Shown piece by piece: positions 9,290 through 61,823 of a stretch of DNA of 64,000 bases. The number at the start of each line of letters is the position of its first letter. Positions within the stretch are counted from its first letter, which is position 1. Source of the DNA: Clostridium sp. 26_21 (GTDB taxonomy: Bacteria; Bacillota; Clostridia; TANB77; CAG-508); assembly GCA_001915995.1 (NCBI GenBank), contig MNRO01000008.1:44099-108098 (forward strand). Direction: 5' to 3'. A model generated the notes under the pieces. That model was not told the origin of the DNA. It worked only from the letters and a program-made list of their open reading frames with translations, and did not search any database. A program made the position numbers and the translations under genes.

Positions 9290-11473
9290 ATGTTTAAAAG
9301 TTATGAAACAGAATTAGCAGGTAGAAAACTTGTAATAGAAACAGGAAAATTAGCAGGATTAGCAAATGGAAATGTTGTAGTAAAATATGGAGATACAGTT
9401 GTAATGGTAAATGTTACAGCATCAAAAGAACCAAAAGAAGGAATAGACTTTTTTCCATTATCAGTAGATTTTGAAGAAAAAATGTATTCAGTTGGAAAAA
9501 TACCAGGATCTTATACAAAAAGAGAAGGAAAACCAAGTGATAAAGCAATATTAGTATCAAGAGCTATAGATAGACCTTTAAGACCATTATTCCCAAAAGA
9601 TTTCAGAAATGATGTAGTAGTTGTTGCAACAGTATTATGTGTTGAACAAGATAATTCACCAGAAGTAGCAGCAATGATTGGTGCATCTGCAGCATTATCA
9701 ATATCTGATATACCATTTGGAGGACCAACAGCAGCAGTAAATGTAGGATTAGTAAATGGAGAAATAGTAATAAATCCAACAGAAGCACAAAGAAAAATAA
9801 GTGACTTAAATTTAACAGTTGCAGGAACAGCTGAAAAAGTAGCAATGATTGAAGCAGGAGCAAATGAAGTTCCAGATGATGTAATGTTAGAAGCAATTAA
9901 AAAAGGACATGAAGAAATTAAAAAAGTATGTCAATTTATTCAAAAAATGAAAGACGAAATAGGAAAGCCAAAATTTGCATACAAATCATTTGCAGTAGAT
10001 CATGATTTATATGAAGAATTAGAAAAAGATTATACAGAAAAAATGAAAACAGCTGTACAAGAAATAGACAAAGACACAAGAGACAATAATGTTGCAGCGT
10101 TAACAGAAGAAATTGAAAAAGCTCTTGCTGAAAAATTAGGAGAAGAAGAATTCGATAAAAGAAAGCAAGAAATTGGTGAAGCAGTTTATAAATTAGAGAA
10201 AAAATGTGTAAGAGATATGATATTCTATGAACATAAAAGAGTTGATGGAAGAGCAATTGATGAAATAAGACCATTATCATGTGAAGTAGGATTATTACCA
10301 CGTACACATGGAAGTGCATTATTTACAAGAGGACAAACTCAAGTAATGTCAATAGTAACACTTGGAATGAAGAGTGAAGAACAAGAATTAGATGGAATAG
10401 ATACAGAAACATCAAAAAGATATATGCATCAATATAACTTCCCTGGATATAGTGTTGGTGAAGCAAAAACATCAAGAGGACCTGGAAGAAGAGAAATTGG
10501 ACATGGTGCATTAGCAGAAAAAGCATTAGTTCCAGTATTACCACCAGTAGAAGAATTCCCATATGCAATAAGAGTTGTATCAGAAGTATTATCTTCAAAT
10601 GGTTCAACATCACAAGCAAGTATATGTGGAAGTACATTAGCATTAATGGATGCAGGTGTTCCAATTAAGAGACCAGTTGCAGGTATCTCAACAGGACTTG
10701 TAACAAATCCAGAAAATCCAGATGATTATGTAATGTTAACAGACATTCAAGGATTAGAAGACTTTTTCGGAGATATGGACTTCAAAGTTGGCGGAACAGA
10801 AAAAGGTATTACAGCAATACAAGTAGATATTAAAGTAGATGGATTATCATATAAGATAATAGAAGAAGCATTTGCAAGAACAAAAAAAGCAAGACAATAT
10901 ATATTAGATGATATAATGAAACCAGTTATTTCAGAACCAAGAGAAGAAATATCAAAATATGCACCACATATAATTACAACACAAATTAAAGTTGAAAAAA
11001 TTAAAGATGTAATTGGAAAAGGTGGAGAAACAATTAATAAAATAATTGATGAAACAGGTGTAAAAATAGATATTGAAGAAGATGGACAAGTATTCATATA
11101 TTCAACAGATGCTGAAATGGGAGAAAAAGCATTAGATATAATAGAAAATATAGCAAGAGTAGTTGAAGTTGGACAAATATATTATGGAACAGTAACAAGA
11201 ACAACATCATTTGGAGCATTTGTAGATATTGGTGGAGGAAAAGAAGGATTAGTTCATATATCAAAAATAGCTAAAGAACATATTAAAAATGTTACAGACT
11301 ATGTAAATGTTGGAGATAAAGTTCCAGTAAAAGTTATTGAAATAGATGACCAAGGTAGAATTAATTTAACAATGAAAGATTTAGTTGAAAATAATTCAGA
11401 AGAAAATAAAGATGAAAATTCTTCAGAGGAAAACACAGAAGCACTTTCAAGTGAAGAGAAAATAGAAGAATAA
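9290..11473 (+). CDS. pnp: polynucleotide phosphorylase (PNPase)
   Basis: 727-aa protein with two RNase PH domains, KH and S1 domains, and an acidic C-terminal tail. The N-terminus MFKSYETELAGRKLVIETGKLA is typical. Confidence 0.95.
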   Translation: MFKSYETELAGRKLVIETGKLAGLANGNVVVKYGDTVVMVNVTASKEPKEGIDFFPLSVDFEEKMYSVGKIPGSYTKREGKPSDKAILVSRAIDRPLRPLFPKDFRNDVVVVATVLCVEQDNSPEVAAMIGASAALSISDIPFGGPTAAVNVGLVNGEIVINPTEAQRKISDLNLTVAGTAEKVAMIEAGANEVPDDVMLEAIKKGHEEIKKVCQFIQKMKDEIGKPKFAYKSFAVDHDLYEELEKDYTEKMKTAVQEIDKDTRDNNVAALTEEIEKALAEKLGEEEFDKRKQEIGEAVYKLEKKCVRDMIFYEHKRVDGRAIDEIRPLSCEVGLLPRTHGSALFTRGQTQVMSIVTLGMKSEEQELDGIDTETSKRYMHQYNFPGYSVGEAKTSRGPGRREIGHGALAEKALVPVLPPVEEFPYAIRVVSEVLSSNGSTSQASICGSTLALMDAGVPIKRPVAGISTGLVTNPENPDDYVMLTDIQGLEDFFGDMDFKVGGTEKGITAIQVDIKVDGLSYKIIEEAFARTKKARQYILDDIMKPVISEPREEISKYAPHIITTQIKVEKIKDVIGKGGETINKIIDETGVKIDIEEDGQVFIYSTDAEMGEKALDIIENIARVVEVGQIYYGTVTRTTSFGAFVDIGGGKEGLVHISKIAKEHIKNVTDYVNVGDKVPVKVIEIDDQGRINLTMKDLVENNSEENKDENSSEENTEALSSEEKIEE

Positions 11474-46898: not shown

Positions 46899-48296
46899 TT
46901 AAAAACTAGATTTTTTAGATTTATAAGCAAATATAATAGTAGAAAAAGTTGTAATTGCAAAAAGTCCAATTAATATAGGAGTACCTGTTTTTGGTAATTC
47001 TTCAGATGATTTTGTATCATCTTTTTTTGGCTCAACAGGTTTTGTTTCTGATTGCTCAATTTTTGTGAGTTTTATTTTTGGAGAAACATTAGAAGTTTTT
47101 GTTTGTTTATTACTATCAAAATCTTTAAAATCTATATCAACTTTTTGATTTGTATTTAAAATTTCTCCGATTATCTTTTCATTAAATTCATTTTTTAAAG
47201 TTAATGTATATTGTATACTTATTGATTTTCCAGCCTCTAATTTTGGAATAGTCCAAGTTATACTATTTGTTTCTTTATCAATTGATGTTGAAATCTTTGA
47301 AGTATCAGTTCCTTGAACATATGCCATATTAAAATTTTCTATAATTTCTTTAGGAAAATAATCTACAACAGTTATATCAGTTAATGTTTTAGAAATAGGA
47401 ACTAAATTAGAATAAATTTCTTCTTTGATAGTTTTTTCTATTTCATTATCATGTATTTTATAAAATTTGCCAACTGTAGGTTTTTCTTCTGTTCCAAAAA
47501 CACCTTCAATAACTTGACCATATGTATAAGAATTTGTACCATCTGTTCTAACAGTAGCTTTTTCATCATCTATACCAGTTAAAAGTGAAATTACATTAAT
47601 ATTTTTTAATGATAATAATGTTTCTTTTGTTGTAGAAATTACTTTTTCTAAAGCTTCAATTTTAACTAAATCTGAATTTCCAACATTCATATTTGGTACA
47701 CCATCTGTTAAAACAATTATGTATTTATTATTTTTTTCAGCTGTGAAAGTCTTTTGAGCTAATTTTAAACCAGCATCTAAATCAGTATAAGCTCCAGTTC
47801 CTTCAATTGCAGAAATTTTTGTTTTTAAAGTTTTTAAATCATTTGTAAATGTAGTTACTAGTTGAGCATCTTTTTCAGTTCCCATTTCTGATTGTTCTTG
47901 ACTTGCAGAAAATGTTACAACACCAATTTTTAGAGTAGAAGAGTTAATTGATAATAGATTTTCAACAAGTTTATTAGCTGAATTTAAGACTAATTCTTTT
48001 CTTGTTGTTGTATCAGTTACTTTTGTATTCATACTATCAGAACTATCTATAACTAGCATTAATTCTCCTTCTGGCAATTCATTAATTGCATTATTATTAA
48101 TTTGTAATTGTAGTGTTACTTGTTTTTTATCTAATTCTGAACTTATAATTTTTTTTTCAAACTTTGAGTTTTCATTTAGTTCAATATTACATATATTATT
48201 TTCAACAATTTCCATTTTTACTGGTGTTGAGGCAAAAACAGTTGTTGAAATTAATATTAATAGCAAACATGATGCTATTGAAATTTTCTTTTTCAT
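46899..48296 (-). CDS. von Willebrand factor A domain surface protein with an LPXTG anchor
   Basis: Signal peptide. vWA with a MIDAS motif (DSSDSM...T...TDG). C-terminal LPKTG, then a hydrophobic stretch, then KSKKSSF. Confidence 0.8.
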   Translation of the reverse strand: MKKKISIASCLLLILISTTVFASTPVKMEIVENNICNIELNENSKFEKKIISSELDKKQVTLQLQINNNAINELPEGELMLVIDSSDSMNTKVTDTTTRKELVLNSANKLVENLLSINSSTLKIGVVTFSASQEQSEMGTEKDAQLVTTFTNDLKTLKTKISAIEGTGAYTDLDAGLKLAQKTFTAEKNNKYIIVLTDGVPNMNVGNSDLVKIEALEKVISTTKETLLSLKNINVISLLTGIDDEKATVRTDGTNSYTYGQVIEGVFGTEEKPTVGKFYKIHDNEIEKTIKEEIYSNLVPISKTLTDITVVDYFPKEIIENFNMAYVQGTDTSKISTSIDKETNSITWTIPKLEAGKSISIQYTLTLKNEFNEKIIGEILNTNQKVDIDFKDFDSNKQTKTSNVSPKIKLTKIEQSETKPVEPKKDDTKSSEELPKTGTPILIGLFAITTFSTIIFAYKSKKSSF

Positions 48297-51130: not shown

Positions 51131-51163
51131 TGTAATATAAATGTAATATAAATGTAATATAAA
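51131..51163 (+). repeat. three tandem copies of the 11-bp unit TGTAATATAAA
   Basis: Exact 3x direct repeat in the divergent intergenic region, 15 nt upstream of the -35 of the GH73 operon promoter. Confidence 0.8.
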
Positions 51164-51179
51164 AGACATAGCGTCAAGG

Positions 51180-51209
51180 TTGACTTTAAGAATGCAAAAA
51201 TGATATACT
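51180..51209 (+). promoter_or_regulatory. sigma-A promoter of the GH73 operon
   Basis: TTGACT, an 18-nt spacer, then TATACT. Confidence 0.45.
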
Positions 51210-51280: not shown

Positions 51281-53005
51281 ATGAAAAAAAAGGTAATTTT
51301 TATCTTAATAATGATAATTTTAATATTGCAATATTTTTGCTTTTTTACTAAAACATTTGCAGTAAATCAAACAATTAGTCAAGATATAGAAAATATAGAT
51401 TCAAATACATGTCCACAAATAAAAGAAATGATACAAAATCTAAAAAAAGAACATTCAAATTGGAATTTTAAAATATTATATACAGATTTAGATTGGAATG
51501 AGGTAATTGAAAATGAATATGTAGGACATGGTTCATCACCAAGAAACTTAGTACCAACAAGTAGTTCATATGCAGGAGAATGGATATGTCCTATTTGTGG
51601 TGATACAACATATGATTCTGGAAAATGGCATTGTGCATCACAATCTGCATTAAAATATATGATGGATCCAAGAAACTCATTAAATTCGTCAGATATTTTT
51701 CAATTTTTAGAATTAACATATACAGATTATAAAATTGAGACAATACAAGCAATGTTAAAAAAATATGATTTTTGGAATAATGAATCATACATAAATGCAA
51801 TTATAGAGGCATCAAAAAAATATAATGTAAATGTTTATTATGTAATAGCAAGAATATTACAAGAACAAGGAAATGGAACATCACCATTAGTAAAAGGTGA
51901 AGGATATAATGATCAATATATTGGGGTATATAATGTATTTAATATAGGAGCTAGTGGAAGTGGAAAAGACAATGTTATATTAAATGGACTTGCTAGGGCA
52001 GAACAAGAAGATTGGACATCAATTGAATTATCAATAGATGGAGGTGTTGAATTTATTTCAAAAGGATATATTAATAGAGGACAAAATACAATGTATCTTC
52101 AAAAATTTGATGTTGATAGTTCAGAAACTGGATTATATTGGCATCAATATCAACAAAATATAATGGCACCACAAAATGAAGGAACAAAATTAAGAGTAGC
52201 ATTTGAAGAATGTGGATCAATAGATATGGATTATACATTTATAATTCCAGTATATAAAAATATGCCAGATAATATATGTACAAAACCAAATTTAGATGAA
52301 AATAAAATAACAGAGATAGATAGTAATCTAGTTAAGTGTAATGCGGACCCAAGTTTAAGATTAAGAGATAAACCAAATGGAACATATATTGGAGAAAAAA
52401 TATATTTAAATGAAGTTGTAACAGTATTAGAAAAGGCTACAGAAAAAGTAGGTGGAACATATTGGGACTTAATAAAAAAATCTAATGGAATAGAAGGATA
52501 TGCAGCAAGAGAAACTTATGAATATGAAGAAAATTATAAATTATATTTAGTCTCTATAAAAAATATAGATGATCAGAAAAAAGATGAATCAGATAATGAT
52601 GACACAAAAGAAATAATTGAAAATGATAAAATAAGAATAAATAATAAAACCACACAGATAACATCAATTCCAAATTGTACAGTTAAAGATTTGAAAGAAA
52701 TTTTAGGAGAAGAAATAATTGTAAAAGATATAAATGGAGAAAAAATTCAAGATGATTTAAACATTGCTACAGGTTATAAAGTTGATGAAAAATATACAAT
52801 TTCAGTTTTAGGAGATGTTAATGGTGATGGAAAAATGAATTCAGCAGACTTATTAGTAATTCAAAAAGATTTATTAAAAGTAAAAAAAATTAATAATGAA
52901 TATAAAAAAATATCTGCAGATGTAAATCAAGATGGAATAATAAATTCAGCTGATTTACTGAAAATCCAAAAACAATTGTTAGGTGTTTCAAAAATAGAAA
53001 TATAA
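51281..53005 (+). CDS. secreted GH73-like N-acetylglucosaminidase with a C-terminal type-I dockerin
   Basis: Signal peptide. A glucosaminidase-like core (YYVIARILQEQGNGTSPL...NVFNIGA). The C-terminus has two Ca-binding dockerin segments (DVNGDGKMNSADLLVIQKDLL and DVNQDGIINSADLLKIQKQLL). Confidence 0.7.
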   Translation: MKKKVIFILIMIILILQYFCFFTKTFAVNQTISQDIENIDSNTCPQIKEMIQNLKKEHSNWNFKILYTDLDWNEVIENEYVGHGSSPRNLVPTSSSYAGEWICPICGDTTYDSGKWHCASQSALKYMMDPRNSLNSSDIFQFLELTYTDYKIETIQAMLKKYDFWNNESYINAIIEASKKYNVNVYYVIARILQEQGNGTSPLVKGEGYNDQYIGVYNVFNIGASGSGKDNVILNGLARAEQEDWTSIELSIDGGVEFISKGYINRGQNTMYLQKFDVDSSETGLYWHQYQQNIMAPQNEGTKLRVAFEECGSIDMDYTFIIPVYKNMPDNICTKPNLDENKITEIDSNLVKCNADPSLRLRDKPNGTYIGEKIYLNEVVTVLEKATEKVGGTYWDLIKKSNGIEGYAARETYEYEENYKLYLVSIKNIDDQKKDESDNDDTKEIIENDKIRINNKTTQITSIPNCTVKDLKEILGEEIIVKDINGEKIQDDLNIATGYKVDEKYTISVLGDVNGDGKMNSADLLVIQKDLLKVKKINNEYKKISADVNQDGIINSADLLKIQKQLLGVSKIEI

Positions 53006-53017
53006 AGGAGAAAGACA

Positions 53018-54424
53018 ATGCCAAAAAAGTTAAAAAAATATTTTATAATACTAGTTTTTTGTGCTAGTTTACTAGGGTTTAATAATTTTGTTGAAGCAGC
53101 TAGTGCAAAATTAACAGCTAGCTCAAATGAAGTAAATGTAGGTGAAGAGGTTACAGTAACAGCTAATATTGTTGCTGGTAGTTGGAATTTAACACTTACA
53201 GGTGCTGGAAAGTCAGAAGGAATAGTTGGTCAAACTAGTGAGACTGCAAATGAAACAAAAAGTGTAAATATAACATTTACACCACAAGAAGCAAATGAAT
53301 ATAAATTTCTGTTGAAAGGTGATATTACTGATTTTTCAACAGAAGTTACTGAAATGATCTCAGAAGAAATTGTAGTAAAGGCAATAGAGAAAGAAGATAC
53401 AAACCAAAATACAGATGATAATAAAATAGACAATACAAATCAAAATAATAATTCAAATATAAATAATAATACAAATAATAATACAAAAAAATCATCAGAA
53501 GCTAGATTAAGGGATTTGGGGTTAAATCCAAAACAATATGATTTTAAAGGATTTAAATCAGATATATATGAATATAATATAGAAGTTCCAAATGAAGCAG
53601 AAAAAGTATATATATATGCAACAACAAAAGACAAAAATGCAAAAGTAAAATCAGGAGATGGTAATATTGCATTAAATGAAGGAGAAAATAAAATTGAAAT
53701 TGTAGTTGTTGCAGAAGATGGAAAAACAAAGAAAACATATACATTAAATATTACAAGAAAAGCAGTTGAACAAACAACTGCACCAGAAGAACCAGTAATA
53801 GATGAGCAACCACAAACTGAATCAACAACAATTTCAACAGCAGAAGAAACTTCTTCAACAATAGTTTCAGAAAATACAAAAATAACAACTTCAACAACTA
53901 AAACAGAAAGCATATCAACTAAGGATAAAAGTCAACAAATTGTTGGAAAAGTAAATTGGATTAAACCAGAAACTTGGGGAAAAGAACAATATATTTTAAT
54001 TGCAATTTTGGCATTTTTAGTATTAACAATAATAGTTTCAATAATATTAAAAATAAAAATTAGAAAAGATGAAGAGGAAGAAATTGAATTTCCAGGTGCA
54101 GAAGAATTGGATAGAGCAATGTTTGAACATCAAGAATTATCAGATAATGAAAATTATAAAAATATGAATGATGAAAATCCATATAATACTAATTTTAATG
54201 ATGAATATTATGTATCAGATAATAATCAAGTATATGATGAACAAATAAATAATCAATTAAAAAAAGAGGAAAACAAAGACGAAAATATTTCTAATGATAA
54301 TGTATCAGAAAAAAATGATGATGAAATAGAAAGAAAGAGAATGCTTGAAGAGTATTTTTCAAACCAAAATGGAAAAAATACTGAAGAAAAAAGAGTTAAA
54401 TCTAAAGGTAAACATTTTGCTTAA
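53018..54424 (+). CDS. single-pass membrane protein with an N-terminal beta domain, a cadherin-like beta-sandwich domain, a Thr/Ser linker and an acidic cytoplasmic tail
   Basis: Signal peptide. A ~100-aa beta-rich domain. A cadherin-like domain (LRDLGLNPKQYDFKGFKSDIYEYNIEVP...YTLNITRK). A TM helix ILIAILAFLVLTIIVSIIL. An Asn/Glu/Asp-rich tail. It starts 12 nt after the dockerin gene. Confidence 0.6.
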   Translation: MPKKLKKYFIILVFCASLLGFNNFVEAASAKLTASSNEVNVGEEVTVTANIVAGSWNLTLTGAGKSEGIVGQTSETANETKSVNITFTPQEANEYKFLLKGDITDFSTEVTEMISEEIVVKAIEKEDTNQNTDDNKIDNTNQNNNSNINNNTNNNTKKSSEARLRDLGLNPKQYDFKGFKSDIYEYNIEVPNEAEKVYIYATTKDKNAKVKSGDGNIALNEGENKIEIVVVAEDGKTKKTYTLNITRKAVEQTTAPEEPVIDEQPQTESTTISTAEETSSTIVSENTKITTSTTKTESISTKDKSQQIVGKVNWIKPETWGKEQYILIAILAFLVLTIIVSIILKIKIRKDEEEEIEFPGAEELDRAMFEHQELSDNENYKNMNDENPYNTNFNDEYYVSDNNQVYDEQINNQLKKEENKDENISNDNVSEKNDDEIERKRMLEEYFSNQNGKNTEEKRVKSKGKHFA

Positions 54425-54467: not shown

Positions 54468-56837
54468 ATGAATAATATTATTAAAAAAGATGGGATAACA
54501 TTAATAGCTTTAACGGTAACAATAGTAGTGCTGTTAATAATATCTGGAGTTACAGTATCACAAATCATTGGAAGTGGAGTAATAAAACAAGTAACAACAG
54601 CAAAAGATAATACTAATAAAGCAGAAGAAAAAGAAATATTAAGAACATCAGTTATTACTGCTCTTGGAAAAAGTAGTAGAGCAAAAGTAGAAGAAGCACA
54701 TTTAAAGGTTAATTTTGAAAAGAACATAGGAGAAGAAGGAAAAGATTATACAATAACAAAAGTTCAAGAAGAAGATGGATCAAAACATTTTAATATTGAA
54801 TTTTTGAAATCAAAAAATCAATATACAATCTTAGAAGATGGAACTGTTTTAGATAGAAATGATTATGAAGGAGATATAACAACAGATTCAGAAGAGTTAT
54901 TAGTAATAGAAGTAGGAGAGACTACAACAATAACAGTAGAAACAAATTCAAATGATCCTGTAACTTGGAAATCAACAAATGAATCAGCAGCTGAAGTAAA
55001 GGTTGAAGATATAAGAAATACACATACTGCAACAATAAGAGGGGTAGCAAATTGTGATGAATTAACAATAGTAGCATCATTATCAAATGGTAAAAAAATA
55101 GAAAGAAAAGTAAAAGTACAAACAAGTCCTAAAAGTATAACAATAACTAACAAAAATAAGGTAACAATAAATTTGGGCTCAGGAGTTGATTTTGTACAAT
55201 TACAGACAAAAATTGAACCTGATACTGTTAATGTAAATCAAAATTTAACATGGAAAAGTAGTGATAACAAAATTGCTAAAGTAGATCAAAATGGTAGAGT
55301 AGTAGGATTGGCAAATGGAACAGTAATAATTACTGTAACAACACAAAATGGAAAAGAGGACTCTTGTTCAGTATTAGTACAAACAAGTCCAAAATCAATA
55401 AAGCTAAATCCAGAAACAATAACATTAGATAAAAGTGGAACAAATACTCAAATTTTGTCTGTTAGTTTTGAACCTAGTTATTCAAATATAGAAAATGCAA
55501 TAAGTTGGAGTTGTTCAGATACAAGCAAAGTTGCTATAACAGAAGTAAAAGATGAAAAAGGATCTACAAATGGAAAAATTATGGTAACTGGAAAAGCAAA
55601 TGGAACAGTAAAAATAACAGCTACTACAGCAAATAAAAAATCAACAACTGCTACAGTAATAGTACAGACAACTCCCAAATCTATATCTTTAGTTCCTAAT
55701 AGTTTAAACTTAGATATGAGTGGAACTGCAAGCAAAAAGCTTGAGGTAAGTTTTGTTCCTCAGGATTCTAATACTAAAAATGGTATAACTTGGACAAGTA
55801 GTAATCCAAGTATTGCTACTGTTGACAATTATGGAAATGTAACAGCAAAAGCAAATGGAGATACGGTAATAAAAGGAAGAACGGAAAATGGAAAAGAAGC
55901 AAGTTGTAATGTGCATGTCCAAACTAGTTTAAAAACAATATCTTTAAATAAGACAAAATTATCATTTGACATGAGTAGTGGAAGTAAGTCAGAAAGATTA
56001 AATGTTAGATTAAATCCTTCAACAGCAAATGTAAATACAGGAATAACATGGTCAAGCAGTAATACTAATGTAGCAACTGTTGATGGAAATGGTAATGTTA
56101 CGGCAGTAGGAAATGGAGGAGCAACGATTACAGCAAAAGCACAAAACGGAAGTACAGCAACATGTTCAGTTGGTGTAATAAGATCTATAGTTAGTTTATC
56201 AGTAAGTCCATCAAGTTCAAAAATATTTGTTAATGGAACAGTGCAATTAAGTAAAAGTATAAACCCATCTAATACAACAGAAGGAACTATCTGGACAAGT
56301 AGTAATACTAATGTTGCAACTGTAAATAGTAATGGACTGGTTACTGGTAAGAATGAAGGAACAGCTACAATTACATTAAAGAATTCTAATGGAAATAAAT
56401 ATGCAACATGCCAAATAAAAGTAATTGGATATAGAACATTTAGTATATCTAGAAGTTTTTGGACAACTGGAGAGGTAAATGCTGGTTGGCATGTATGTCA
56501 AGGTGAAGTAAGTTTTGGAGAAGCAAGAAATATAGTATCAATATCTGGATGGGGAAAAGTAGGTGAAACCGGAATGTGGGATGAAGTAAAGTTTGGACTA
56601 AGAATAAGAGCCTACAATGGAAGTAGCTGGGAAACATTATGGGAAGATTATGAATCAATATACCGTTGGTGGGGAGAAAGAGGCGAAATGTATAGAGATA
56701 TTTCTCTTTCATTAAACAAAAAATATACAATGTTATCATGTGATTTCTATAATGATAAGTGGATTAATAAAAATTGGTGGGCCGACGATCCTAGAGATTC
56801 AAGTTTTGGATTGACAGTAACATATTATAATGATTAA
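54468..56837 (+). CDS. giant Big_2-repeat surface protein, paralog 1 (pilin-like N-terminus, unique C-terminal domain)
   Basis: MNNIIKKDGITLIALTVTIVVLLII N-terminus, a conserved N-module, at least 6 Big_2-like repeats, and a Trp-rich ~170-aa C-terminal domain. Confidence 0.7.
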   Translation: MNNIIKKDGITLIALTVTIVVLLIISGVTVSQIIGSGVIKQVTTAKDNTNKAEEKEILRTSVITALGKSSRAKVEEAHLKVNFEKNIGEEGKDYTITKVQEEDGSKHFNIEFLKSKNQYTILEDGTVLDRNDYEGDITTDSEELLVIEVGETTTITVETNSNDPVTWKSTNESAAEVKVEDIRNTHTATIRGVANCDELTIVASLSNGKKIERKVKVQTSPKSITITNKNKVTINLGSGVDFVQLQTKIEPDTVNVNQNLTWKSSDNKIAKVDQNGRVVGLANGTVIITVTTQNGKEDSCSVLVQTSPKSIKLNPETITLDKSGTNTQILSVSFEPSYSNIENAISWSCSDTSKVAITEVKDEKGSTNGKIMVTGKANGTVKITATTANKKSTTATVIVQTTPKSISLVPNSLNLDMSGTASKKLEVSFVPQDSNTKNGITWTSSNPSIATVDNYGNVTAKANGDTVIKGRTENGKEASCNVHVQTSLKTISLNKTKLSFDMSSGSKSERLNVRLNPSTANVNTGITWSSSNTNVATVDGNGNVTAVGNGGATITAKAQNGSTATCSVGVIRSIVSLSVSPSSSKIFVNGTVQLSKSINPSNTTEGTIWTSSNTNVATVNSNGLVTGKNEGTATITLKNSNGNKYATCQIKVIGYRTFSISRSFWTTGEVNAGWHVCQGEVSFGEARNIVSISGWGKVGETGMWDEVKFGLRIRAYNGSSWETLWEDYESIYRWWGERGEMYRDISLSLNKKYTMLSCDFYNDKWINKNWWADDPRDSSFGLTVTYYND

Positions 56838-56844
56838 AATACTA

Positions 56845-59555: not shown

Positions 59556-61823
59556 ATGGCTAAAAATATAAAAAATAAAGGTATAACTTTAATTGCATTA
59601 GCGATAACTGTTGTTGTATTGTTGATATTGGTAGGAGTAACAATATCTCAAGTTACTGAAAATGGAATGTTTAATATTTCAAACATAGCGAAAGATAATG
59701 CTAATAAAAGTGAAGAAAAAGAAATATTAAATACATCTGCTATTTCTGCAATTTCGAAAAGTAGCAAAGCAAAAGTAGAAGAAACACATTTGAAAACATA
59801 TTTAGATAAAAATGTTGGTGAAGAAGGAAAAGATTATACAATAAAAAGAGCAGATGATAATTCTAAAAATTTTGAAATAAAATTTATAAAAACAGAACAT
59901 GAATATGTTATTTTGGAGGATGGTACTGTTCTAGAGAAAGATGAGTATCAAGGTACAATAACAACAGATTCTAATGAAGTGATAATAATAGAAGTAGGGA
60001 CTTCAAAAGAGATTACAGTAGATACTTCTGGAACAAAAGAACCAGTAACATGGAGTTCAAGTAATGATGCTGTAGCAAAAGTTAGAGTTGAAGATGTAAC
60101 AAATACAAAAACAGCAAAAATAGATGGAATATCAAATGGTGAAAATATAATAATAACTGCAAAATTGTCTAATGGACAATCAATAGAAAGAAAAGTTACA
60201 GTTCAAACAAGTCCATCAGCAGTAAAAATAAATGATGTTGAAGTAGATATAGGTGATGGACAGAAAACTAAGAAAATAGAAGCAAAAATAGAACCAGAAA
60301 CAGCAAATGTAAATAGAGAATTAACATGGACAAGTAGTGATCCAAATATAGTTACAGTAGACGATTCTGGAAATGTAACAGGAAAAGCAATGGGATCAGC
60401 TATTATAACAGTAGTAACAAAAAATGGAAAAAAAGATACATGTACAGTATCTGTACATGCAACACCAAAGTCAATAAAAATAAATCCAGCAACAGTTATA
60501 TTAGATAGAAGTGAAACAAATACACAAAAATTAACAGTTAGTTATGAGCCATCATATTCAGATAGACAAACTTCAATAACATGGAGGAGTTATGATACAA
60601 ATATAGTTACTGTAGATGCTTCAGGAAATATAACTGGAAAAGCAAATGGAGAAACTAAAATAGAAGCTAAAACAGCAAATGGAAAAATAGCAACATGTAT
60701 AGTAACAGTACATACAACACCAAAATCAATATCTTTAGATCCAAATAATTTAATATTAGATATGAGTGGAACTACAACTAGAAAGTTAACAGTAAAATTT
60801 GATCCAACAGATGTTGATCAACAAAATACAATAACATGGTCAAGTAATAGAGAAAGTGTAGCAACAGTAGATAACTTTGGAAATGTTACAGCAAAATCAA
60901 ATGGAGATGCAATAATAACAGCTAAAACAGCAAATGGAAAAATAGCAACATGTAATGTACATGTACAAACAAGTTTAAAATCAATTGCATTAAATAGAAC
61001 AAGTCTTGGATTAGATTTAAGTGGAACAAAAACAGGAAAATTAACAGTAAGCTATAATCCAACAGGAGCAAATGTAAATACAGGAATAACATGGTCAAGT
61101 AGTAACAACAATGTAGCAACAGTAGATAATTCTGGAAATGTTACAGCAAAAGCAAATGGTGGAGCAATAATAACAGCCAAAGCACAAAATGGAAGTACAG
61201 CAACATGTTCTGTTGGAGTTCAAACAACAATAACAAGTATATCAATAAATGAGCAAAATAAATCAATTAATTTAAATCAAACATTACAATTAACAGCAAA
61301 TGTAAATCCAAGTTCAACATCAGAAAAATTGCAATGGATAAGTAGTAATACAAATGTAGCAACAGTAGATTCAAATGGTTTAGTAAGACCAAAAACTGGA
61401 GGAACAGTAACAATAACTGTAAAAGGTTCAACAAGTGGTAAATCAGCAACATGCCAAGTGACAGTAATTAATTATATGATAGTAAATTTGGACCAACATT
61501 ATCATGATGGAGCAGGAACAATGAGTCCTTGGTCTGGAACAATAGCCGCAGGAGCAACTAGAGCAGAAGTAAGTATGTGGGGAAAATTAATAAATGGTTG
61601 GAGAGATAAAGACTTTGTATGGACATATTCTGGAAATGGTAGTGCAAGTTGGAAAAAGAGATTAGATGGAAGTTTTGGAAATAACCCATCATATTCATCA
61701 ACACAATATATTACTTTAAATGGTGGAACATCATGGAATATTACATTAGTAATAAAAAAGGTTGGTATTTTTAATGGTTCACCAGATTGCTATAGTGCTG
61801 GTTCAATTAAGTTTTATTATTAA
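59556..61823 (+). CDS. giant Big_2-repeat surface protein, paralog 2
   Basis: MAKNIKNKGITLIALAITVVVLLIL N-terminus, the conserved N-module, at least 6 Big_2 repeats, and a different ~150-aa C-terminal domain. Confidence 0.7.
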   Translation: MAKNIKNKGITLIALAITVVVLLILVGVTISQVTENGMFNISNIAKDNANKSEEKEILNTSAISAISKSSKAKVEETHLKTYLDKNVGEEGKDYTIKRADDNSKNFEIKFIKTEHEYVILEDGTVLEKDEYQGTITTDSNEVIIIEVGTSKEITVDTSGTKEPVTWSSSNDAVAKVRVEDVTNTKTAKIDGISNGENIIITAKLSNGQSIERKVTVQTSPSAVKINDVEVDIGDGQKTKKIEAKIEPETANVNRELTWTSSDPNIVTVDDSGNVTGKAMGSAIITVVTKNGKKDTCTVSVHATPKSIKINPATVILDRSETNTQKLTVSYEPSYSDRQTSITWRSYDTNIVTVDASGNITGKANGETKIEAKTANGKIATCIVTVHTTPKSISLDPNNLILDMSGTTTRKLTVKFDPTDVDQQNTITWSSNRESVATVDNFGNVTAKSNGDAIITAKTANGKIATCNVHVQTSLKSIALNRTSLGLDLSGTKTGKLTVSYNPTGANVNTGITWSSSNNNVATVDNSGNVTAKANGGAIITAKAQNGSTATCSVGVQTTITSISINEQNKSINLNQTLQLTANVNPSSTSEKLQWISSNTNVATVDSNGLVRPKTGGTVTITVKGSTSGKSATCQVTVINYMIVNLDQHYHDGAGTMSPWSGTIAAGATRAEVSMWGKLINGWRDKDFVWTYSGNGSASWKKRLDGSFGNNPSYSSTQYITLNGGTSWNITLVIKKVGIFNGSPDCYSAGSIKFYY

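Follow-up and report, generated by a model that had tools for sequence, protein, structure and literature searches.

A dockerin-bearing GH73 glucosaminidase and the membrane stalk protein encoded next to it: a probable private tether in uncultured gut Clostridia

The subject of this work is a pair of adjacent genes within a 64,000-nucleotide (nt) stretch of contig MNRO01000008.1 from Clostridium sp. 26_21, referred to below as the window. The first gene, P1, encodes a secreted glucosaminidase of glycoside hydrolase family 73 (GH73) that ends in a type I dockerin. The second, P2, encodes a single-pass membrane protein with an N-terminal beta-sandwich (N-domain), a cadherin-like domain and a C-terminal membrane anchor. 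It is proposed that P2 is a private membrane anchor for P1 and that its N-domain receives the dockerin; judged from sequence and predicted structure, such a tether is probable. The proposal is carried by the domain identities of both proteins, the conserved pairing of their genes, the presence or absence of the N-domain according to that of an upstream dockerin gene, the co-variation of the dockerin with the N-domain, and the cohesins found in distant homologues. The pair had been pointed out by a model working from the letters of the window (the original prediction), which placed both open reading frames (ORFs) and the gap between them exactly to the base, as the ORF list and the sequence confirm.

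The assignment of P1 to the secreted GH73 glucosaminidases, already made in the original prediction, holds. Behind a signal peptide, the catalytic region matches solved GH73 enzymes in a phmmer search of the Protein Data Bank (PDB), namely Staphylococcus aureus Atl (6fxo, 9e-17), AtlE (4pi7, 1e-14), an N-acetylglucosaminidase (5wqw, 8e-14) and SagB (6fxp/6u0o, ~1e-9), and the catalytic Glu (E195, in ILQEQGNGTS) aligns with LLETGNGTS of the solved enzymes. The Pfam family PF01832 itself stays below its gathering score on P1 (23.7 vs 30.2 bits). The best NCBIfam match is partial and SagB-like (NF052642, 2e-18), and since its score lies far under the SagB family cut-off (66.5 vs 425 bits), P1 is not a SagB orthologue. 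The search for P1 homologues returned 1481 matches at E <= 0.001, of similar length among the matches listed. The middle region of P1, which has a weak SH3b-like match, possibly consists of wall-binding or spacer modules, and a precomputed PF08239 match is present in some homologues. A Cys/His cluster, EWICPICGDTTYDSGKWHC, lies just N-terminal of the GH73 core at amino acids (aa) 103-117 (51587-51631); none of the matched solved GH73 enzymes aligns to it, and either a small metal site or a disulphide knot is conceivable.

A type I dockerin is made of two segments of ~22 residues, each with a calcium loop (D1, N/D3, D5, D/N9, D12) followed by a helix. The C-terminus of P1 conforms to this description: both loops, DVNGDGKMNSAD and DVNQDGIINSAD, are canonical, an LL.IQK.LL helix follows each of them, and the motif SADLL.IQK.LL is common to both helices. 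Pfam Dockerin_1 (PF00404) covers aa 510-567 along its full model (positions 1-57) with 47.1 bits against a cut-off of 22.9, and solved C. thermocellum dockerins are matched as well (2ccl_B, 8e-9; 1ohz_B, 5e-8). The canonical two-segment dockerin claimed at the outset is thus confirmed, and the concern raised together with it, that the segment might fail calcium-binding prediction, is answered by the two intact loops. Both loops are intact in 108 of 120 P1 homologues; within each of these proteins the two helices share on average 89% identity, while lineages differ in their helix class. Helix symmetry is typical of dual-binding-mode, cohesin-binding dockerins, and combined with the change of class between lineages it gives the pattern expected of them.

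The layout of P2 described in the original prediction (an N-terminal beta domain, a cadherin-like sandwich, a Thr/Ser linker, a transmembrane (TM) helix and an acidic tail) is borne out by Pfam and by AlphaFold 2 (AF2). The signal peptide ends in VEA|AS. In the full AF2 model, aa 29-123 form a confident eight-stranded beta domain with a predicted local distance difference test score (pLDDT) >90, and the cadherin-like domain PF12733 (aa 165-248; 59.4 bits vs a cut-off of 24.2) is predicted at the same confidence, pLDDT >90. The core that is constant in the P2 family comprises KSSEARL..LG, one or more cadherin-like domains, W..P.TWG, the TM helix, PGAEELD[KR]A..EHQEL and a C-terminal KGKHF. Since W..P.TWG, PGAEELD[KR]A..EHQEL and KGKHF are also kept in P2 homologues that have no N-domain, the anchor has a conserved role of its own, and the conserved cytoplasmic motif suggests that it is positioned or regulated from inside the cell. 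Public records label P2 homologues only as 'cadherin-like beta sandwich domain-containing protein'.

For comparison, ORFs were called in 89 related loci (labelled L001 etc.) and scored with family hidden Markov models (HMMs). The P1-P2 pair is present in most of 79 genome loci from uncultured gut Clostridia, with dozens of relatives down to ~30-40% identity. These relatives belong to metagenome-assembled genomes (MAGs) of uncultured low-GC Clostridia, some labelled Bacilli, from human, rabbit, goat and mouse gut, and near-identical or identical genes occur on human-gut metagenome contigs. In three loci (L005, L007 and L009) a divergent U32 peptidase gene is followed by the dockerin-GH73 gene and then by the gene of the cadherin-like membrane protein, with N-terminal domains that differ and with a P2 identity of only ~32% in one of them. 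The original prediction had also coupled the pair to an adhesin family through the downstream gene, which encodes a protein with Big_2 domains. This coupling is not supported: the Big_2 gene does not follow the pair in L005, L007 or L009, and in the 99%-identical strain L001 it is broken up into ORFs of 205 aa and 554 aa. The conserved unit is the two-gene pair, and its tie to the Big_2 'adhesin' is local.

Unlike the constant core, the N-domain of P2 differs between lineages, and its presence follows that of the dockerin. Of 88 P2-like ORFs, 58 have a folded N-domain and lie directly 3' (3-60 nt) of a dockerin-bearing gene. In another 20 of the 88, the signal peptide runs straight into a low-complexity linker, and no dockerin gene is nearby in any of them; eight of these 20 genes stand beside a U32 gene and therefore occupy the same genomic position as P2. 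The exceptions are few and accounted for (second genes of tandems, borderline scores and L045). In L045 (9977-12703), a P2-like gene with an N-domain comes first and is followed by a 364-aa GH73 homologue without middle region and dockerin, which has an N-terminal TM anchor of its own, like S. aureus SagB.

Dockerin and N-domain also vary together. The helix classes of the dockerin map one-to-one onto the type of the downstream N-domain: type A, the type of the window, goes with [ST][AG]DLL.IQK.LL and relatives, type B with ARDSLRILKYAV or ALDAAIILRYTV, type C with STDYM.IKN.IM or AGDYV.IKNYIM, type C2 with PSDYM.VKNHIM or SFDYIRIMNYIM, and type E with SMDMYLMIQIIL. No discordant combination was found among the 58 pairs, which fall into at least six classes. 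The comparison of the window with L013 (type B) shows 92% identity in the catalytic domain, 92% in the cadherin-like domain and 80% in the juxtamembrane/TM part, against 49% in the dockerin and 24% in the N-domain; in a sliding comparison, the divergence stops sharply where the cadherin-like domain begins. Compared with L015, a distant type A locus, the catalytic (64%) and cadherin-like (52%) identities are lower, and those of the dockerin (76%) and the N-domain (51%) are higher. The scaffold residues of the dockerin are retained (YTISVLGDV.GDG, NNEY.K.AD.N.DGII) and both of its helices are replaced in parallel. Pairwise identities over 49 distinct gene pairs correlate with r=0.76 between dockerin and N-domain, r=0.34 between dockerin and catalytic domain and r=0.82 between catalytic and cadherin-like domains. 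In a partial Mantel test, the correlation of the dockerin with the N-domain given the catalytic domain is r=0.75, a value reached by 0 of 2000 permutations; the corresponding value with the cadherin-like domain is r=0.14. As a possible dockerin partner, the cadherin-like domain was discarded because its identity remains at 92% across entirely different dockerin helices and because it is present in 20 loci with no dockerin gene. As the dockerin co-varies with the N-domain irrespective of the catalytic domain and of the conserved cadherin-like domain, the N-domain, whose presence tracks the upstream dockerin gene, is the best candidate for the dockerin partner.

Further evidence comes from distant P2 homologues. 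Seven N-domains, from L069, L076, L077, L082, L086 and L087, were aligned as a cohesin-type group. The profile of this alignment, searched against the PDB, matches the C. perfringens NagJ cohesin (2jh2, 2ozn, 2o4e, 2w1n) with 4e-8 along its entire length and then more than 15 cellulosomal cohesins (5g5d, 5nrm, 3l8q, 1tyj, 2y3n, 1zv9 and others), and its consensus matches Pfam Cohesin (PF00963) with 41.2 vs 24.1 bits at positions 2-138 of 139. At the level of the family, the arrangement envisaged in the original prediction, a dockerin enzyme followed by a membrane-anchored protein with a cohesin, as recognised by these profile matches, does exist. The dockerin protein need not be the GH73 enzyme: in L076, L077, L084, L086 and L087 the upstream dockerin protein is unrelated to it and 851-2249 aa long. 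In three of these five loci, the very next gene encodes a P2-like protein whose N-domain is cohesin-type or unclassified; the N-domain is Big_2-like in L084, and in L076 an extra gene lies between the dockerin protein and the P2-like protein. In four of the loci, from Bacilli- or Firmicutes-labelled MAGs (L076 156-15854, L077 31-16391, L086 635-11225 and L087 6111-10678), proteins of 668-2249 aa with C-terminal dockerins adjoin proteins with cohesin, cadherin-like and TM segments. Of the dockerin proteins of this group, one that was scanned shows 21 cadherin-like repeat matches; another shows Big_2 together with a weak papain-like match. The arrangement suggests that the same anchor family underlies a wider system of surface assembly.

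The nature of the window's own N-domain is the debatable issue. The original prediction considered it suited, by size and character, to be a small cohesin-like partner. The partner part stands, as the domain is the best candidate and tracks the dockerin gene, but a cohesin it is not by Pfam, by PDB profile or by predicted fold. Several results weigh here against a cohesin socket. Pfam gives no Cohesin match to the N-domain of P2, and the type A consensus of 25 homologues scores with BatD/DUF11-like families (27.4 bits), PKD (23.9 bits) and then CARDB, not with Cohesin. The type A profile finds no cohesin among the PDB sequences, and a single NagJ cohesin sequence compared with this profile reaches 0.5%. 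The cohesin fold is a nine-stranded jelly-roll of ~140 aa, which aa 28-125 of the window's P2 do not form: modelled alone by AF2, the type A domain has eight strands in 98 residues (pLDDT 94, predicted TM score (pTM) 0.81). Foldseek returns for this model only immunoglobulin (Ig)-like neighbours (CARDB 3idu, TM score 0.58-0.64, the Ig domain of SYG-2, SoxZ and PKD), with no cohesin in the top 50 and no match at E <= 1e-3. Finally, filamin repeats align to type A in hhalign with 93.9%, although these filamins were preselected for their similarity to type A.

The comparison of the ectodomain with cohesin families by profile and structure, which had been proposed together with the original prediction, therefore gives an Ig-like answer, and its sole link to cohesins is an hhalign alignment of type A with the cohesin-type N-domains of the homologues. 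This alignment runs end to end over 97 columns (96.5%, score 56.4), with a gap of ~30 residues at the '..YDS..LE.VS' strands of the cohesins. The reversed alignment scores 12.2, 100 column shuffles score 10.1 +/- 2.0 with a maximum of 15.5, and the Big_2 alignment reaches 0.2%. The other N-domain types align to type A with 96-98% and, except for type E, to cohesins with 87-92%; type C also resembles Big_2. An apparent kinship of the N-domain with the cadherin-like domain appeared in an iterated HMM search that had drifted by round 2-3; it was not used, and the clean hhalign control gives 0.3%. In a search of 1.84 billion representatives, the type A profile matched 662 clusters at E <= 0.001, and in almost all matches listed the domain lies at aa ~27-125 of proteins of 400-600 aa. 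The homologue search that started from the N-domain alignment gave only 19 matches, most of them short proteins on short contigs and all lacking a Pfam label. From these comparisons, common descent of the window's N-domain with cohesins is plausible, with the evidence close to balanced and leaning slightly to the other side. The alternative, that it is a genuinely non-cohesin dockerin receptor recruited from a small Ig-like (CARDB/PKD/filamin-type) sandwich, is a tentative possibility.

The region around the genes is consistent with an operon for an autolysin. The 12-nt spacer between P1 and P2 contains an AAGGAG ribosome-binding site, and no terminator-like site was found between P1, P2 and the Big_2 gene, the first one being at 56844, after the latter. 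P1 and P2 share one reading frame and are separated, at 53003-53020, only by a TAA and four codons. One protein cluster at 90% identity includes P1-like members of 581 aa alongside P2-like members of 495 aa; some assemblies may contain fused or read-through ORFs. Upstream of P1, a triple TGTAAT element matches exactly the consensus of the response regulator WalR/YycF, TGTWAH-N5-TGTWAH (PMC9210968), and its box ends 17 nt 5' of the -35 element of a candidate promoter (Table 1). The window, with a GC content of ~26%, holds seven matches to this consensus vs 1.95 +/- 1.59 expected, and the WalR-type 21-mer is kept ~140 nt 5' of P1 in 12 other loci (L001, L002, L007, L008, L012-L014, L016, L020, L028, L030 and L032). 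The triple box suggests that P1-P2 is an autolysin operon. Being exact, enriched and conserved, it fits an autolysin that would be controlled by the cell-wall homeostasis regulator.

Table 1. Features of the P1-P2 locus in coordinates of the window
Feature	Position	Strand	Basis or detail
Candidate operator, TGTAAT-ATAAA-TGTAAT-ATAAA-TGTAAT	51131..51163	+	consensus match; three direct half-sites, 11-bp spacing
Sigma-70-like promoter (candidate), -35 TTGACT, 18-nt spacer, TG-extended -10 TATACT	51180..51209	+	consensus match only; 10/12 positions, TG present
P1 gene, secreted GH73 N-acetylglucosaminidase with C-terminal dockerin	51281..53005	+	574 aa
P1 signal peptide, MKKKVIFILIMIILILQYFCFFTKTFA	51281..51361	+	read from sequence
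GH73 catalytic core, aa 113-325, catalytic Glu E195	51617..52255	+	phmmer vs PDB
P1 middle region, aa 346-500, weak SH3b-like match	52316..52780	+	Pfam SH3_3 aa 373-411, E 0.025, below cut-off
Type I dockerin, aa 508-574	52802..53002	+	Pfam and PDB matches; Ca loops 52814-52849 and 52919-52954
P2 gene, single-pass membrane stalk protein, C-terminally anchored	53018..54424	+	468 aa
P2 N-terminal ~95-aa beta-sandwich (type A N-domain), proposed dockerin receptor	53099..53392	+	AF2, co-variation
Asn/Gln-rich flexible linker, 32 aa	53393..53488	+	pLDDT <50 over aa 127-153
Cadherin-like beta-sandwich PF12733, starting with family-invariant KSSEARL..LG	53489..53767	+	Pfam, AF2
Ser/Thr/Glu-rich linker, ~62 aa, presumed wall-spanning stalk	53768..53953	+	pLDDT <50, aa 253-312
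Juxtamembrane motif NWIKPETWGKE and TM helix	53954..54067	+	W314, P317, W320, G321 nearly invariant; helix aa 322-350
Acidic cytoplasmic tail with conserved FPGAEELDRAMFEHQELS and C-terminal KGKHF	54068..54424	+	P359-L374, G464, H466 nearly invariant

In the proposed mechanism, P1 would be secreted by the Sec pathway, and its dockerin would bind, in a calcium-dependent manner, the ~95-aa beta-sandwich at the tip of P2. The stalk would be held in the membrane by its C-terminal TM helix and project through the wall, the two flexible linkers (32 aa and 62 aa) and the cadherin-like domain presumably being long enough to cross a Gram-positive wall. Docking to P2 would keep the enzyme on the producing cell instead of letting it diffuse away, and its substrate would be the wall of that cell, i.e., P1 would act as an autolysin. 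Because the N-domain has co-evolved with the dockerin, a private tether of this kind is the most likely function of the pair.

However, the genetic arrangement itself may produce a part of the pattern. Since P1 ends with the dockerin and mature P2 begins with the N-domain, only ~100 nt separate the two modules, and one recombination tract or deletion could lead to co-variation without any interaction. An example is the N-domain-less P2 of L036 (9842-11083), whose signal peptide MKKKLLTIFLIIISYMLINFICVNEIFAVNEN closely resembles the P1 type (MKKNIKNLLVSFILIVSYIIINLICGNEVFAVSQ in P1 of L009), as a single deletion joining the P1 signal peptide to the P2 linker would leave; it seems that enzyme, dockerin and N-domain were removed together. 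Physical linkage thus does contribute to the co-variation. It may be argued further that the N-domain, with its Ig-like rather than cohesin test results, is a spacer or adhesive module whose co-variation with the dockerin only reflects linked DNA, and that the dockerin docks on an outside cohesin or a wall component; the scan covered 64 kb of the genome, and a canonical cohesin could lie elsewhere. This explanation is considered unlikely. The retention of the dockerin scaffold while both helices change together fits selection on the binding face better than wholesale replacement of a tract, the classes combine without a discordant pair, distant homologues have true cohesins in the same place, and the window contains no further dockerin or cohesin-like module. 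A functional match explains these data better, and as part of the tether reading the dockerin helices and the N-domain probably evolve as a matched, exchangeable cassette.

The other explanations concern the dockerin and the enzyme. The dockerin-like segment could be a calcium-stabilised, EF-hand-like tail without a protein partner, in which case the two genes would share only their regulation or their place in the envelope. A weak Pfam EF-hand_1 match on P1 is in line with this, and many genomes reportedly have dockerins and no recognisable cohesins. Nevertheless, a full-length dockerin with both calcium loops, above the Pfam cut-off and similar to solved cohesin-binding dockerins, makes such a tail highly improbable, and a structural role gives no reason why the helices should diversify in concert between repeats and track the N-domain of the neighbour. 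It is also conceivable that the tether is real and that the enzyme is not a housekeeping autolysin but a surface-displayed weapon against neighbouring bacteria (the 'lyticome'). Dockerin-bearing lysozymes occur in the rumen metagenome, where they are regarded as possible competition factors (PMC6487960), and, going by their citation in PMC6403190, in the cellulosome of R. champanellensis, where they can be read in the same way; a stalk of this length would carry the enzyme to the wall surface or past it. This role is improbable for P1, whose closest solved relatives, Atl, AtlE and SagB, are endogenous autolysins. Other points against it are the candidate WalR-type operator upstream, the fact that, in small genomes, the pair keeps its place on the chromosome among housekeeping genes, and the homologous enzyme of L045, anchored by itself in the SagB manner.

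Several known systems resemble the proposed tether. In the NagH/NagJ pairs of C. perfringens, as proposed here, a dockerin on a secreted glycoside hydrolase is paired with a single partner, there a cohesin, outside any cellulosome. The analogy, drawn already in the original prediction, is correct in that the NagJ cohesin is the nearest solved relative of the N-domains of distant homologues, whereas the proposed receptor in the window, an Ig-like domain of 95 aa, fails these cohesin tests. In addition, the receptor is carried here by a dedicated membrane stalk from the next gene and there by another enzyme, and the enzyme here is a peptidoglycan hydrolase. Single cohesins on transmembrane-anchored proteins were described for Ruminococcus (PMC13463774). 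Non-cellulosomal pairs, transmembrane single-cohesin anchors and dockerin-bearing lysozymes with the 'lyticome' idea are known. The anchoring scaffoldins of cellulosomes and amylosomes are similar in that an enzyme with a dockerin is retained by a monovalent, cell-bound receptor, as is proposed here, and for wall-lytic dockerin enzymes the lysozymes are a precedent. Unlike in those systems, there is no scaffoldin network, the operon having one dockerin and one receptor within the window, and unlike in cellulosome hosts the genomes are small (one complete MAG chromosome is 1.55 Mb). The statement that nothing else in the window suggests a cellulosome proved correct, as no cellulosome component was seen in its 64 kb and no dockerin or cohesin-like module besides this pair. 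By analogy, P1-P2 would work like a monovalent cohesin-dockerin anchor, with membership of the cohesins recognisable for the distant homologues only. A GH73 enzyme that is kept at the envelope along with a partner in the membrane is also known from S. aureus, where the membrane-tethered glucosaminidase SagB has SpdC as its partner (bioRxiv 10.1101/2021.03.06.434200). SagB, however, has a TM helix of its own as its anchor and associates inside the membrane with a polytopic CPBP-type protein, whereas P1 and P2 would make contact outside the cell, as plug and socket at the far end of a long stalk. The full-text literature searches gave no description of a dedicated operon of a GH73-dockerin enzyme and a membrane stalk or of this N-domain as a dockerin partner, and in the literature searched there was none of the P2 receptor architecture (N-domain, cadherin-like domain, TM helix and conserved cytoplasmic tail).

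Some other features of the window can be mentioned. The gene 3' of P2 begins 43 nt past 54424 (54468-56837). The original prediction had placed a giant adhesin at this distance; the distance is right, but 'giant' is inexact, since the protein, which has a prepilin-like N-terminus and five Big_2 domains, is 789 aa long. It is one of three paralogous surface proteins (54468-56837, 59556-61823 and 61849 to the window end), each with several Big_2 domains, a distinct C-terminal domain and, at the N-terminus, a hydrophobic, prepilin-like stretch, K.GITLIAL..T[IV]VVLL, that lacks the usual Glu at +5. None of these paralogues is conserved beside the P1-P2 pair in distant loci. On the minus strand, 46899-48296 encodes a VWA-domain protein with a pilin-tip-like Ig domain, which ends in LPKTG, a hydrophobic tail and basic residues and looks like a sortase-anchored surface protein. 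The region around 28052 contains ordinary housekeeping genes, and a look-up for context of the gene at 9290..11473 found nothing on record.

Hydrolases of the cell wall have to be controlled in space, and the known ways of controlling autolysins are wall-binding repeats, an own membrane anchor as in SagB, and activating membrane partners such as FtsEX. A dockerin plug on an autolysin together with a private socket on a membrane stalk would add a further way of spatial control of a hydrolase. The P1-P2 system looks widespread in gut Clostridia and is not annotated as a cohesin-dockerin pair. For orphan dockerins, it indicates that the partner is here probably the product of the adjacent gene, diverged or replaced beyond recognition by sequence models. 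If the socket is indeed not a cohesin, then several beta-sandwich folds (a true cohesin, Big_2-like, CARDB-like and a type without family) would be interchangeable at the tip of the stalk, each matched to its own dockerin helix class, and these would be new non-cohesin ligands of dockerins. This could explain the many orphan dockerins in genomes without recognisable cohesins, and the matched classes, at least six, could serve as orthogonal plug-and-socket parts for protein assembly.

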